From an uncultured SAR86 cluster bacterium (GTDB taxonomy: Bacteria > Pseudomonadota > Gammaproteobacteria > Magnimaribacterales > D2472), in the NCBI GenBank assembly GCA_902586925.1, contig CACIJE010000001.1, forward strand, positions 78,104-142,103: a stretch of 64,000 nucleotides of DNA. The letters are read 5' to 3'. The notes beneath the pieces were generated by a model, which saw only the letters and a program-made list of their open reading frames with translations, was not told where the DNA came from and searched no databases. Both the position numbers and the translations under genes were made by a program. How positions within the stretch are numbered: position 1 is the stretch's first letter; each line of letters starts with the position of its first letter. Shown piece after piece: positions 51,074-56,437 of this stretch.

Positions 51074-52447
51074 TTAGGAACCTGTTCCAGTTGCTGTGCC
51101 AGTTCCTGTTCCAGTCCCAGTTCCTGTTCCAGTTCCAGTTCCTGTTCCAGTTCCAGTACCAGTACCAGTTCCAGTTCCAGTTCCAGTTCCTGTTCCTGTT
51201 CCAGTGCCAGTTCCTGTTCCTGATCCAGTTGGGAAGGTAGATGCTTCAGTTCCAGTACCTGTTCCAGTTCCAGGATTATCATCAACACCACCGACATCTC
51301 TAACTTTAACTGTTATGTCTTGTGTTGAAGTATTTGAACTAGCATCAGTTGCTGTAACAGTAGCTGTAAAGTCGTATGTACTTCCATCATAACCAGCTTT
51401 ACCTTCTACAAGATCACCTTCATATGTATAGCTTCCGGCTAAACCAGGTCTATCTTCGTAATCAATAGCAGTTATAAATGTTAAAACCCCAGCTGCAGTA
51501 ATTGACATTGCATCTGTATTCGAAATAGTAAATGTAACTGTATCAGCATCTGTTGCAGTAACAGTTCCGATTGCAGTTTGATTCTCATCAACAATAAATG
51601 TTGAAGATGATGTAAATACTGGTGATGTTGTGTCTGTAACATTAACTGTTCTACTAGCTGTACCAGCATTTCCTGATGCGTCTGTAGCTGTATAAGTTAA
51701 TGTATAAGAACCTACAGTATTGGCATCAACTGTACCAGATGTAACAACTTCAACAGAACCAGACAAATCAGTTGCAGTTGCTCCAGCATCAGTGTATGTA
51801 GTTCCTAATTCAACAGTTGCAGGATTATCACCTGTTACTGTAACAACTGGTGCTGTAGTATCAACAACATTAACAGTTCTAGTTGCAGTTGCAGTATTTC
51901 CATCTAAATCAGTTGCGGTGTATGTGATTGTATATGAGCCAACTGTGCTTGTATCTACAGTTCCTGATGATGTAACTGCTGTAACACCGTGAAATTCATC
52001 AAATGCAGTAGCTCCCTGATCGGTATATGTTGCTCCCAATTCTACAGTTGCAGGGTTATCACCAATGACTGTTAATACAGGAGGAACATTATCATCATAA
52101 CCATCGTCAGTAAGAGCAGAAATTGCACCCAGACCCGCTATTGCTATAAGTGCTTTTTGAATAGCTGAAAGCTCAGCTATTACTGCACCAAGTTGAGAAG
52201 GACCTGATGTAGCTTCCGCACCTTCTGTACCCTCTTGCATATTTGCTTCTAAATTAGCACGCTCCAGAATAAGCTCAGAACGTCTATCATTAAGTTGTTC
52301 TAGGTTCATTGACTTAACTCTATTCTCAATTTCTTCAAGTTTTTGATTTGATATACCATAATCGTTGGCCTGAACATTAGTTATTAAACTAAAAGCCATA
52401 GCTATGGTTAGTATGTTAATTTTGTTAAATATATTCCTCATTTTCAT
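51074..52447 (-). CDS. Secreted multidomain surface protein: signal peptide, coiled coil and hydrophobic helix, two Ig-like (DUF5011-type) repeats, a cadherin-like domain, and a C-terminal Gly-Thr repeat tail
   Basis: Signal peptide [27 protein letters not shown], counted from the ATG at 52447 (GAGGAA upstream). Two ~77-aa repeats begin P(V/P)(L/V)[20 protein letters not shown]. Cadherin-like [17 protein letters not shown]. Tail ...[17 protein letters not shown](GT)21ATGTGS. Confidence 0.8.
51095..51220 (-). repeat. Coding hexanucleotide repeat encoding an uninterrupted (Gly-Thr)21 tract
   Basis: I read all 42 codons individually. They alternate GGN with ACT/ACA, with synonymous variation. 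The longest perfect run is four identical hexamers at 51167..51190. A second (GT)4 block lies at 51248..51271. Confidence 0.95.
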
Positions 52448-52630
52448 ATTTCCTCTGGCCCCCCACAGCATACGTTTAGAGATTGTATATTATTTTAAAT
52501 GTATACGCTATTATTTTACAAGTTTAAAATAAAGAGCACTCTAAAGCGCCTGTTTATAAAACTAGGTGGCTATTATACACAAATATAGTAAAAAGCTATG
52601 ACTTTTTAAGTATCAATTTTGTAACAAAAT

Positions 52631-54604: not shown

Positions 54605-54616
54605 TGTTGATCGAAA

Positions 54617-56437
54617 TCAATCAGTGCTTATGGAGTTCAATGATGCCAGTGCGAGGCCTAAATTACCAAGTATGGTTACATATGCTTGGGCGGCTAATGT
54701 TCTTGAGGATGAATTATCTATTTCTCTTGGAACAAATATCACCGATCCTGGATATATCGTGATACCTGACTTAGGTTGATTTTCAAATATATTTCTTTTC
54801 TTTGAGTATCTTTGTGTTTCTCCATTTGGATGTAATATATAAATTGATTCATTATCTGCATATTTTTTATAACCGCCTGATTTATCTATAAAAAAATCAA
54901 CGCTTTTATTTTCTTCATACATGACAGAACCTTCAGATGAAACTTCTCCGTAGACATACACATTGTTTGTTTTCTCAGGAACTTTTAAATTATCACCCTC
55001 TTGAATACCGAGAGTTTCTCTCGCGGCTTCATTTTCCATATCAACAACTATTCTTCCATTTGGTTCTAAATCATTAATCTCTTTTGTCAGGCCAACTATA
55101 GGAGTTAAGTCAAAATTTCCGCTAATATTTTGTTGACTTAGTGCAATAATATTATCCAAAAACTCTTGATATAATAAGCTTTGTGCAGCTTCATTTATCA
55201 ATTTAGCATCTCTATTTTCAAAAATAGCTCCAAAAGGATAAGCATTTTCTGTAAAGCCACCGGCCTTAATTATTAAATCGTCTAGTGTTTCACCAGCAGC
55301 CATCGTGTAAGTACCAGGCTTTAATACAGCACCTGAAATAGTTGCTTTTCTGTATGGATATTCTCTTATATAAATCATATCTCCATCAACTGACTTTATT
55401 GAATCAAACTGAATACTGTTTGTAATGGGTATTGATTTAAGAGTGCCATCCAAAATTCTTTCAAGATATATATTTTGAATATCTGCAGTTTGTTTAAATC
55501 CATTTGCGTAATTAATAACGTCTCCAAGATTTTGTTCATCAACAAGCTCATATTTTGCAGGTCTTTTAACTGCTCCATCTATGGATACAACACTTTTTCT
55601 GGGATTTATAAATATTACATCACCTGACCTTAATCGTTCTTTAAGATTAAAATTCCCATTTATTAAAAGTTCATAAACATCTAAAACTTCAATAATCTTA
55701 TTATCTCTAACTAAGTTAATTTCTCTGAATGTCCCATACTCACTAATTCCACCAGCAATATTTATTGCTTGTAAGATATTTGAATTACCAGATAATGTGT
55801 AAATACCTGGGTTCTGAGCGTCACCAGTAATTAATACGTTGACATCTCTTAACTTTGACATGCTAATGAATGCTTCTATTCCAATAAATGAAGAGTTCAC
55901 CCTAGACTTTATTAATTTTGATGCTTCATCAAGAGATAAACCAATTAGTACTATCTCACCAATGTCTGGAAAATTAATTGAGCCATCACCATTTATTAAA
56001 AAATCCTCAATGATGTCTTTTTGACCAACCAATTGAATACTTAGAACATCACCAACGCCTAACGTGTATGATGAATCAGGATTAGGTTCATTAATTGGCA
56101 TAAACGAAGTTTGGAATGTGTTAAAAAAATCTGAACCAAAAAGTTTTAATTCTGTATTAATTTCAAGCCTATCATCACTTTGTAACCTCTTTTCTAATTC
56201 TCTTAAATCCTGCTCAATTCGAGATTTCAGATCAATTAACTCTTCAAACTGCTGTAATTTGCTTGAATATTGTGAAGGCCTATAATTTTCATCCAGTGCT
56301 TTAGTGTTTTCTTCAGATCTATTGACAAGATCTTCTCTAATATCCTCTGGTAAGCTATCTAAAAATGACTCATCAAACTGCTGAGCATTAAGGAAAAAAA
56401 CTGAGATTAATAAAATAGACAATAATAAATTTTTCAT
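54617..56437 (-). CDS. Polysaccharide export protein, Wza-like (Poly_export domain plus four SLBB-like repeats)
   Basis: Poly_export motif YTLGVGDVLSIQLVG. Four G.V..PG.Y-type units (ITGDAQNPGIY, IDGAVKRPAKY, ISGAVLKPGTY, VYGEVSSEGSV). Hydrophobic C-terminal helix LAAQAYVTILGNLGLALASL. The signal peptide has no lipobox Cys. Confidence 0.75.
   Translation of the reverse strand: MKNLLLSILLISVFFLNAQQFDESFLDSLPEDIREDLVNRSEENTKALDENYRPSQYSSKLQQFEELIDLKSRIEQDLRELEKRLQSDDRLEINTELKLFGSDFFNTFQTSFMPINEPNPDSSYTLGVGDVLSIQLVGQKDIIEDFLINGDGSINFPDIGEIVLIGLSLDEASKLIKSRVNSSFIGIEAFISMSKLRDVNVLITGDAQNPGIYTLSGNSNILQAINIAGGISEYGTFREINLVRDNKIIEVLDVYELLINGNFNLKERLRSGDVIFINPRKSVVSIDGAVKRPAKYELVDEQNLGDVINYANGFKQTADIQNIYLERILDGTLKSIPITNSIQFDSIKSVDGDMIYIREYPYRKATISGAVLKPGTYTMAAGETLDDLIIKAGGFTENAYPFGAIFENRDAKLINEAAQSLLYQEFLDNIIALSQQNISGNFDLTPIVGLTKEINDLEPNGRIVVDMENEAARETLGIQEGDNLKVPEKTNNVYVYGEVSSEGSVMYEENKSVDFFIDKSGGYKKYADNESIYILHPNGETQRYSKKRNIFENQPKSGITIYPGSVIFVPREIDNSSSRTLAAQAYVTILGNLGLALASLNSISTD

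Follow-up and report, generated by a model that had tools for sequence, protein, structure and literature searches.

A Yjb/Gfc-type outer-membrane cassette with a Gly-Thr-tailed Ig-domain partner protein between pheT and ihfA in SAR86 bacteria

The 64,000-nucleotide stretch of an uncultured SAR86 cluster bacterium analysed here (contig CACIJE010000001.1; the whole stretch is hereafter called the window) carries between pheT and ihfA a cassette of three genes, which encode a Wza-like outer membrane polysaccharide export (OPX) protein, a YjbH/GfcD-family outer-membrane protein and a secreted Ig-domain protein ending in a long Gly-Thr tail (the tail protein). The positions and identities of these genes, proposed in a first-pass annotation made from the sequence alone, were confirmed by Pfam searches and BLASTP. 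All lie on the minus strand in the order infC (59705-60178)-rpmI-rplT-pheS-pheT-OPX-yjbH-tail gene-ihfA, as read from the window open reading frames (ORFs), while in E. coli ihfA comes directly after pheT, as that annotation had correctly stated. The features of the locus are as follows.

54617-56437, minus strand: OPX gene, 606 aa, with Poly_export and SLBB domains.
52631-54604, minus strand: YjbH/GfcD-family gene, 657 aa, PF06082.
52472-52630, minus strand: intergenic region between yjbH and the tail gene, examined by consensus scans.
51074-52447, minus strand: tail gene, 457 aa from the Met of MKMRN; the longest ORF spans 51074-52471.
52112-52204, minus strand: hydrophobic helix (aa 82-112) and acidic patch of the tail protein, from orthologue alignment and AlphaFold2 (AF2).
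51293-52081, minus strand: three tandem beta-sandwich domains of the tail protein (aa ~123-385), two of them Bact_surface_Ig-like (DUF5011) and one cadherin-like.
51077-51277, minus strand: C-terminal low-complexity tail (aa ~391-457), (TG)n...ATGTGS, its core being a 6-nt tandem repeat at 51084-51230.
56510-58414, minus strand: pheT, upstream boundary of the cassette, 634 aa, with B3_4, B5, tRNA_synthFbeta and FDX-ACB domains.
50787-51059, minus strand: ihfA, 90 aa, TTG start, Bac_DNA_binding match of 2.3e-20.
50709-50785, plus strand: tRNA-Pro(GGG), downstream boundary (ARAGORN; Rfam RF00005, 63.5 bits).

The product of the middle gene matches PF06082 at 1.6e-113 and aligns over its full length with E. 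coli YjbH (28% identity, 2e-61) and GfcD (26% identity, 2e-56), and hence belongs to the PF06082 family of double-barrel outer-membrane proteins. It has a signal peptide that lacks a lipobox and is cleaved around A|DSF, cleavage sites and hydrophobicity being judged from sequence by simple rules, and its expected layout is that of two beta-barrels with a periplasmic middle domain. GfcD has been predicted to consist of a FapF-like barrel of 12 strands, a domain in the periplasm and a second barrel, of 13 strands, that opens laterally (PMC8346858, PMC11494523), and it is bound by GfcB/GfcC (PMC8592465). Among solved structures no sequence relative of YjbH was found, and the AF2 model of the window protein is of low confidence (mean pLDDT 58, pTM 0.46; 30 close homologues) and too poor for judging barrels or a lateral gate; the secondary structure in this low-confidence model runs through 12 strands, an alpha/beta domain and then ~13-14 strands.

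The OPX protein contains Poly_export (1.8e-14) and three SLBB matches (1.7e-31) in Pfam, is 26% identical to E. coli GfcE over the Poly_export/SLBB part (1e-15) and matches the Wza structures 2j58/2w8i at ~7e-13. The presence of an OPX protein beside a YjbH/GfcD homologue bears out the original description of the cassette as Yjb/Gfc-type. The accompanying claim that both lipoproteins of the E. coli loci are missing was right only for YjbF/GfcB, not found locally, whereas GfcC/YjbG is no lipoprotein and is present in fused form within the OPX protein. This fusion was revealed by profile-profile comparison (hhalign), in which 30 SAR86 OPX sequences were compared with a GfcC/YjbG profile built from 37 stand-alone proteins. 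Residues 121-361 align to class-1 (Wza-like) OPX proteins with a probability of 98.9, and residues 365-574 align to positions 26-225 of the 248 positions of the GfcC/YjbG profile (probability 99.0, E 2.9e-18), an E-value about six orders of magnitude better than that of the SLBB-only alternative for the same residues. At the corresponding place PF06251 GfcC_C scores 16.6 bits in the window protein, under its cut-off of 20, and 29.3 bits in the orthologue of SAR86 TMED112 (locus L038). A stand-alone GfcC/YjbG gene was found neither in the window nor within 10 kb on either side of the SAR86-clade loci (tblastn, jackhmmer). Class 2A OPX proteins are defined by a Poly_export-SLBB(n)-GfcC architecture, usually a signal peptide of the SPI type and a median length of 605 aa (Saidi et al. 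2022, PMC9603273); the window protein has this architecture, an SPI-type (Sec) signal peptide without lipobox (N-terminus MKNLLLSILLISVFFLNA|QQ, with no Cys) and 606 aa. Judged by these sequence comparisons it is a class 2 OPX protein, with GfcC/YjbG present as its C-terminal module. Its end is formed by a hydrophobic helix of ~24 residues (AQAYV.ILGNLG.ALASL), conserved among orthologues of 580-620 aa, which may be the GfcC D4 helix or a short Wza_C, the Pfam Wza_C model (PF18412) giving no match in this protein. In five other loci (L054, L059, L071, L074 and L081, from Limnobacter, Idiomarina and an enterobacterial metagenome-assembled genome (MAG)), individual ORFs of 944-1256 aa match YjbG as well as YjbH, and these look like a GfcC-type module fused to the barrel, not to OPX.

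The tail protein is composed, in this order, of a signal peptide, an amphipathic helical stretch, a hydrophobic helix with an acidic patch, three Ig/cadherin-like domains, an acidic DDNP and the (GT)n tail. In Pfam, PF16403 Bact_surface_Ig-like is matched twice (1.7e-38), along with HYR and weakly Cadherin (3.3e-5, below cut-off), and both the profile match and the beta-sandwich fold assign the protein to the bacterial surface Ig-like (DUF5011) family. In its AF2 model (mean pLDDT 74.5) the three beta-sandwich domains exceed 90, residues 82-112 form a helix and the tail, at 35-44, is predicted to be disordered. Foldseek relates the model to tandem cadherin EC domains (5e-12) and to RTX-adhesin extender repeats, suggesting that the Ig/cadherin-like domains could serve as a rod-like spacer. 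The tail itself, the last ~65 residues, is 43% Thr and 42% Gly and is encoded by a 6-nt unit in 24.5 copies (TRF, period 6). Its C-terminus (...GTATGTGS) has no hydrophobic or basic segment, and motif, NCBIfam and Pfam scans of the protein detected none of the sorting signals PEP-CTERM, GlyGly-CTERM, LPXTG and T9SS CTD. Two plus-strand ORFs over this region, 50941-51240 (FQFQ...) and 51096-51392 (PVPVPV...), are frame shadows of the GT repeat and not genes.

Orthologues from metagenomes and SAR86 genomes measure 296-637 aa, with one to about five Ig/cadherin-like domains, the same order of elements and a DD[DN]P motif, and in every complete orthologue the tail has Thr at each second position, the alternate residue being G, S, D, N or A. 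The number of Ig domains varies, and the conserved parts are the N-terminal helix module and the tail; in the region of helix and patch the columns E92, L93, K98, D114, D115, Y117 and D119 are invariant in the orthologue alignment. The maximal 19-residue Kyte-Doolittle mean of the tail protein is 1.7, compared with 1.2-2.4 in YjbE/GfcA-type proteins. The length of the tail is polymorphic: a contig 97% identical to the window (L086, 20780-21075) differs by exactly one GT unit, and a 97%-identical protein (P0123) has a tail much shorter than that of the window. This variation is an in-frame length polymorphism, not on/off phase variation.

The distribution of the cassette was followed by scanning one genome per species, followed by an ORF and jackhmmer survey of all retrieved loci. 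A separate homologue search with YjbH gave 1998 sequences, the best 120 of which are marine, with 67-84% identity. The 30 SAR86-clade loci comprise the window locus, found 100% identical in MAG MED709 (NZFS01000011.1), and 29 relatives, nearly all labelled SAR86, whose YjbH is 52-74% identical. In all 30 the arrangement pheT-OPX-YjbH-tail protein-ihfA is found, as far as contigs reach, so that the tail protein is co-conserved with YjbH and the three genes are not scattered independently in close relatives. In two loci, L030 and L031, the OPX gene has been moved upstream of pdxH-infC (L030, 3681-5516; L031, 3733-5541), while YjbH and the tail gene are still adjacent between pheT and ihfA. From the order kept in all 30 loci it follows that the cassette is ancestral to a large SAR86 clade and is not an insertion in this genome. 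Its GC content is native (0.30-0.40, against ~0.32 for the window), and the first-pass wording of an inserted cassette, if meant as a recent event, does not stand. Vertical inheritance of a cassette embedded in the infC-pheST-ihfA operon explains this distribution best. One locus, L013 (2786-7774), has an extra gene for a 1662-aa lipoprotein between pheT and the OPX gene; it was considered as a second tailed client and rejected, being a lipoprotein devoid of an X-Thr tail.

Spacers of 12-14 nt, initially reported for the whole cassette, are found at two of the four junctions of the window, OPX-yjbH (12 nt) and tail gene-ihfA (14 nt), the other two being 72 nt (pheT-OPX) and ~160-180 nt (yjbH-tail gene). 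Across the SAR86 loci the medians in gene order are 51, 11.5, 172 and 12.5 nt, and the size of the yjbH-tail gene gap is conserved (range 55-220 nt). In the window, this gap contains a terminator-like hairpin (52550-52535) and, after it, a promoter-like site (52521-52492, TTGTAA-18-TAAAAT), consensus matches only, and the latter may provide a separate promoter for the tail gene and ihfA. As had been noted, ihfA begins with TTG 14 nt past the tail-gene stop; this TTG is at the site homologous to the E. coli start, and NCBIfam IHF-alpha is the top match of the product, yet under its cut-off. The tRNA-Pro(GGG) lies beyond ihfA, where it had been placed, but on the plus strand and convergent with ihfA. 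In the 24 loci with both ORFs resolved, tail gene and ihfA are 0-25 nt apart; this short distance clade-wide suggests that ihfA is on the same transcript, in which case the tail gene is unlikely to be silent. On this spacing ihfA is probably co-transcribed with the tail gene. In one metagenome protein (P0149, 633 aa) the tail protein runs on into an IhfA (PF00216) domain, which may reflect either an artefact of gene calling or genuine read-through over this very short gap.

The relationship of the tail protein to known partners of YjbH emerges from its architecture and genomic position. GfcA and YjbE, described initially as Thr-rich secreted proteins, are so by their sequences: in each, the signal peptide is followed by a hydrophobic helix of Gly/Ala/Val, a patch of D/G/N and a Thr-rich end. 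The outgroup consists of 49 loci (Pseudomonas, Halomonas, Billgrantia, Salinisphaera, Shewanella, Idiomarina, Pseudidiomarina, Limnobacter, Celerinatantimonas, Buttiauxella, Pantoea and E. coli). In the majority of them, the yjb and gfc loci of E. coli included, yjbF is directly preceded by a small ORF whose product repeats this layout: a signal peptide, a hydrophobic helix of small residues, a D/N/G/S patch, in some cases a spacer of poly-Pro or (EP)n, and a Thr-rich tail made of (GTT)n, (GT)n or T7 and ending in N, R or Q. Such Thr-tailed small proteins stand beside YjbH in Pseudomonas, Halomonas, Shewanella, Idiomarina, Limnobacter and enterobacterial loci. Using a strict filter for a signal-peptide-like N-terminus and a Thr-rich C-terminus, with flanks read in six frames, an ORF of this kind was found beside the YjbH core in 25 of 33 SAR86-clade and 31 of 49 outgroup loci, the misses being truncated contigs or narrow failures of the filter; none was found in ~985 kb of flanking DNA. 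Likewise, in the surveyed loci runs of at least six X-Thr units occur only in the tailed ORFs adjacent to YjbH. In Pseudidiomarina and Idiomarina (L068 7887-8255, L072 7983-8306, L076 7888-8283, L081 12433-12771) the hydrophobic helix of the partners is separated from their Thr-rich tail by long spacers of poly-Pro, (EP)n or (PPVTE)n, in parallel to the (PEPT)n of TMED112 described below. The possibility that the 'missing 14th strand' of the GfcD C-barrel is supplied by the (GT)n tail was also considered; it is disfavoured, the periodicity of the tail differing between lineages (T7, GTT, GT).

Two loci bridge the SAR86 tail protein and the small outgroup partners. In L037 (YjbH 44% identical) and L038 (from the complete genome of SAR86 TMED112, 35% identical) the OPX-YjbH pair lies outside pheT-ihfA, in a polysaccharide cluster that also codes for an ABC transporter, a sulfotransferase, glycosyltransferases of families GT2 and GT4 and epimerases. 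Next to the pair, a gene in convergent orientation specifies a protein of 133 or 226 aa that has no Ig domains and is composed of a signal peptide, an acidic region, a hydrophobic helix, DDDD, (PEPT)n and DPGT(GT)n. When searched by phmmer, the first 108 residues of the L038 protein match one SAR86 tail protein (E 2.4e-5), collinear from signal peptide to acidic patch, and after iteration all 33 SAR86 tail proteins. The simplest reading is one lineage of partner proteins in which Ig domains were substituted for a Pro-rich spacer. By sequence features, the hydrophobic helix and acidic patch of the tail protein would be the counterpart of the Gly/Ala helix and D/N/G patch of YjbE/GfcA. With this layout common to the outgroup loci and to L037/L038, the proposed equation of the Gly-Thr tail with the Thr-rich element of YjbE/GfcA is supported, as is its co-occurrence with YjbH outside the main clade. 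The partner class is thereby set, across lineages, by an architecture of Sec signal peptide, hydrophobic small-residue helix, acidic/Gly/Asn patch, variable spacer and Thr-rich tail.

Genes for surface polysaccharides are located on both sides of the operon. Upstream of pdxH-infC (60965-63924) are genes for PglE-like (DegT), PglD-like (hexapeptide) and PglC-like (Bac_transf) proteins and a GT1 glycosyltransferase, and a PglF/CapD-like dehydratase is encoded downstream of ihfA (46324-48237), so that the housekeeping operon seems to divide a pathway for a sugar of the di-N-acetylbacillosamine type. The upstream cluster of a 97%-identical strain extends further, through genes for a UDP-sugar dehydrogenase, a GT2 glycosyltransferase, an EpsG-like protein, a DegT protein and epimerases, and in the ~10 kb further upstream thus covered no flippase, ligase or polysaccharide co-polymerase (PCP) is met. 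In agreement with the described absence of the Wzc/Wzb pair, no Wzc/Etk or Wzb/Etp was detected in the window (tblastn) or in the SAR86-clade flanks of 10 kb on either side (jackhmmer); the yjbEFGH form of the family likewise does without Wzc/Wzb (Etk/Etp).

Taken together, we favour with moderate confidence the reading that the cassette is the SAR86 form of a Yjb/Gfc (group-4-capsule-type) outer-membrane module for polysaccharide export and anchoring, having an enlarged YjbE/GfcA partner. Starting from the gene identities, domain architectures and conserved association described above, the partner protein would be exported by Sec, and a polysaccharide made by the flanking clusters (PglC/D/E/F-like proteins, glycosyltransferases and an EpsG-like candidate polymerase) would be attached to, or become associated with, its Thr-rich tail. 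The YjbH barrel, docked to the OPX protein via the fused GfcC module, could then pass the protein or a protein-glycan conjugate outward, with the hydrophobic helix keeping the partner cell-associated and the Ig rod acting as a stalk that holds the tail off the membrane. Every step of this scheme after Sec export, including surface location, glycan attachment and YjbH-dependent export, is one that we infer. Since Thr content is conserved while repeat periodicity and spacer length are free, a role of the Thr side chains in glycan attachment or binding is favoured over a fixed backbone conformation.

Several points weigh against this reading. The Pfam YjbE model (PF11106), searched at E <= 10, matches E. 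coli YjbE alone among the proteins tried (5e-33), and gives no match for the window protein, the small proteins of L037/L038, GfcA or the partners of Pseudomonas, Shewanella, Halomonas, Idiomarina and Limnobacter; with GfcA and every non-enterobacterial partner thus missed, homology to YjbE/GfcA rests on architecture and gene position, to which the sequence comparison adds one link inside the SAR86 lineage. The tail protein has the architecture and the position by yjbH, although at 457 aa it is not small, and its low-complexity segments say little about sequence-family membership; moreover, Thr-rich and hydrophobic low-complexity segments can arise convergently. The partner gene is here downstream of yjbH, as compared to upstream of yjbF in the classic operon. 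YjbF/GfcB itself was found neither in the window (tblastn with GfcB and YjbF) nor within 10 kb on either side of the SAR86-clade loci, while the same jackhmmer survey retrieved YjbF in 43 outgroup ORFs. No PCP (Wzc/Wzz/KpsE), flippase or O-oligosaccharyltransferase/ligase was recognised in Pfam scans of the other window ORFs, and neither a PCP nor an O-oligosaccharyltransferase/ligase in the 10-kb flanks, and therefore the glycan-attachment step has no identified enzyme. A hydrophobic helix that follows a cleaved signal peptide would, if it acted as a stop-transfer sequence, leave the Ig domains in the cytoplasm, so it must differ from a classic inner-membrane anchor. Finally, the link of the tail with YjbH is a proposal, and the AF2 model of YjbH is of low confidence.

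A serious, if unlikely, alternative is that YjbH mainly translocates the tail protein, whose tail would be a secretion or threading signal or a barrel-lodged segment, for the display of an adhesin or stalk, and that polysaccharide export by the OPX protein runs in parallel; this overlaps with the favoured reading, minus glycan attachment. The published fold recognition of a FapF-like N-barrel, for which polypeptide secretion through the barrel has been proposed (PMC9603273; PMC8346858), speaks for it, as do a predicted disordered tail free of bulky or hydrophobic residues, which could be threaded, the adjacency of YjbH and the tail gene that survives relocation of the OPX gene in L030 and L031, and the resemblance of the Ig/cadherin-like rod to adhesin extender modules. 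However, E. coli YjbE has almost nothing besides helix and tail and hence no cargo to display, the varying periodicity of the tails (T7, GTT, GT, ST, DT) is a poor fit to a specific strand-in-barrel signal, and the module is always accompanied by polysaccharide genes and an OPX gene.

Very unlikely, in our estimate, is a coincidental association of an ordinary OPX-YjbH pair for capsule or exopolysaccharide with an unrelated Ig adhesin, its Gly-Thr tail being a generic disordered linker, that became locked in the pheT-ihfA operon. DUF5011/Ig-like surface proteins are indeed very common in marine metagenomes, with many of the homologue matches multi-domain and tailless, and such an origin would agree with the missing Pfam YjbE match and with a tail gene that may have its own promoter. 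Against this, L037 and L038 lack Ig domains and lie outside pheT-ihfA, yet have a (GT)n-tailed, helix-bearing small protein beside OPX-YjbH; Thr-tailed partners are the rule in outgroup YjbH loci and absent from the ~985 kb of flanks; and the tail protein conserves its N-terminal helix module and tail rather than its number of Ig domains. Recent horizontal acquisition of a capsule islet into the pheT-ihfA junction, which the adjacency of pheT and ihfA in E. coli and the frequent mobility of surface-polysaccharide loci might suggest, is effectively refuted for this genome by the same junction content in all 30 SAR86-clade loci, down to a YjbH of only 52% identity, by the native GC content and by the lack of an integrase, repeats or tRNA-linked ends among the features found, the tRNA-Pro being convergent and beyond ihfA, while an insertion long ago, at the root of the clade, is possible.

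Within the reading as a polysaccharide export and anchoring module, the cassette bears on the open questions of what GfcA/YjbE and GfcD/YjbH do and of how group 4 capsules are anchored. All seven gfc genes, gfcA included, are required for group 4 capsule, whose anchor was still called unknown in 2026 (PMC13621845), and Larson et al. speculated earlier that GfcA may be an O-antigen-modified cargo exported by GfcD (PMC8592465). What is conserved across lineages is the hydrophobic helix together with the Thr-rich tail, and the stretch between them ranges from nothing to a 500-residue Ig rod, which constrains any mechanism. As a tentative conjecture, distinctly unlikely as a whole, YjbE/GfcA-type proteins might be the non-lipid-A anchor of group-4-type capsules, carrying the glycan on the Thr-rich tail; the conjugate would exit via the YjbH/GfcD double barrel, the lateral gate of the C-barrel would let the helix pass into the outer membrane, and the spacer would set the distance at which the glycan is displayed. 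Under this conjecture E. coli has no spacer, Idiomarina has one of poly-Pro, TMED112 one of (PEPT)n and the main SAR86 clade a rod of Ig/cadherin domains, and if the conjecture is true, SAR86, among the most abundant surface-ocean bacteria, wears a protein-stalked glycan coat encoded inside a housekeeping operon. Physiologically, the cassette would represent a clade-wide surface structure of SAR86, probably well expressed, whose tail length differs between near-identical strains, and thus a candidate for contact with phages and grazers.

Compared with E. coli gfcABCDE-etp-etk and yjbEFGH, the SAR86 cassette shares a full-length YjbH/GfcD protein (26-28% identity), an OPX protein of the Wza/GfcE family, a GfcC/YjbG-type module, a signal-peptide partner with hydrophobic helix and Thr-rich tail, and polysaccharide synthesis genes. 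It differs in that GfcC is fused to OPX instead of standing alone, YjbF/GfcB and Wzc/Wzb are not nearby, the partner gene is downstream of yjbH and not first in the operon, and the module lies inside the infC-pheST-ihfA operon. The partner has 296-637 aa and 1-5 Ig/cadherin-like domains against 80-101 aa in E. coli, and its tail, which varies in length, strictly repeats the dipeptide X-Thr. A variable-copy, low-complexity Gly/Thr repeat in a surface-exposed protein is also known from BclA of Bacillus anthracis, in which Thr residues of a collagen-like (GPT)n region are O-glycosylated. This likeness is an analogy only, since BclA belongs to a Gram-positive bacterium, has no YjbH/OPX partners and contains a GXX repeat that forms a collagen triple helix. 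Another comparison is offered by the Vibrio wbf locus, which presumably also has a large OPX gene (wbfF). Its wbfB-wbfC-wbfD genes, of the YjbH, YjbG and YjbF families, are tied to capsule and O-antigen export in marine Gammaproteobacteria (cited in PMC8592465) and, according to this literature, keep separate YjbF and YjbG homologues.

With the class 2A/2B (KpsD-like) OPX proteins encoded near GfcD/YjbH barrels, the SAR86 protein shares the Poly_export-SLBB-GfcC architecture, the SPI signal peptide, the length and the adjacent YjbH/GfcD gene (PMC9603273), while its GfcC_C match is sub-threshold in the window and above threshold in the TMED112 orthologue. In that survey class-2 OPX genes near YjbH/GfcD genes were tabulated, and docking of integrated GfcC modules to such barrels was considered, but no partner protein was described; no KpsE/KpsMT or other PCP/ABC components are seen adjacent to the SAR86 cassette. 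Hence the module, first called undescribed, is in part a known kind, a Yjb/Gfc module with a class-2 OPX adjoining a YjbH barrel: the OPX/YjbH pairing is tabulated in PMC9603273 and the idea of GfcA glycosylation and export is found in PMC8592465, while the literature searched holds no description of a stalked Ig partner with a hypervariable (X-Thr)n tail, of the apparent loss of YjbF, of placement inside the infC-pheST-ihfA operon or of a cross-lineage architectural definition of the partner class, nor anything relevant on capsules or surface islands of SAR86. As regards loss of components, none of the SAR86-clade loci showed YjbF close to the cassette, and GfcC can form part of the OPX protein.

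Elsewhere in the window, a low-GC islet (21689-26837; GC 0.24 at 23-24 kb) encodes a NodU/CmcH-type carbamoyltransferase and ORFs of 308, 395 and 369 aa with no Pfam match at 1e-5, and may be another glycan-modification islet. In the housekeeping operon itself, the 634-aa PheT matches TIGR00472 from model position 155 on and the ~150-aa N-terminal tRNA-binding domain is missing (window 56510-59136), the pheS product has only 241 aa, and these short forms of PheS and PheT are found in all SAR86 loci. Directly upstream of infC lies pdxH (60372-60968), as compared to thrS in E. coli, and the same holds for other SAR86 loci.

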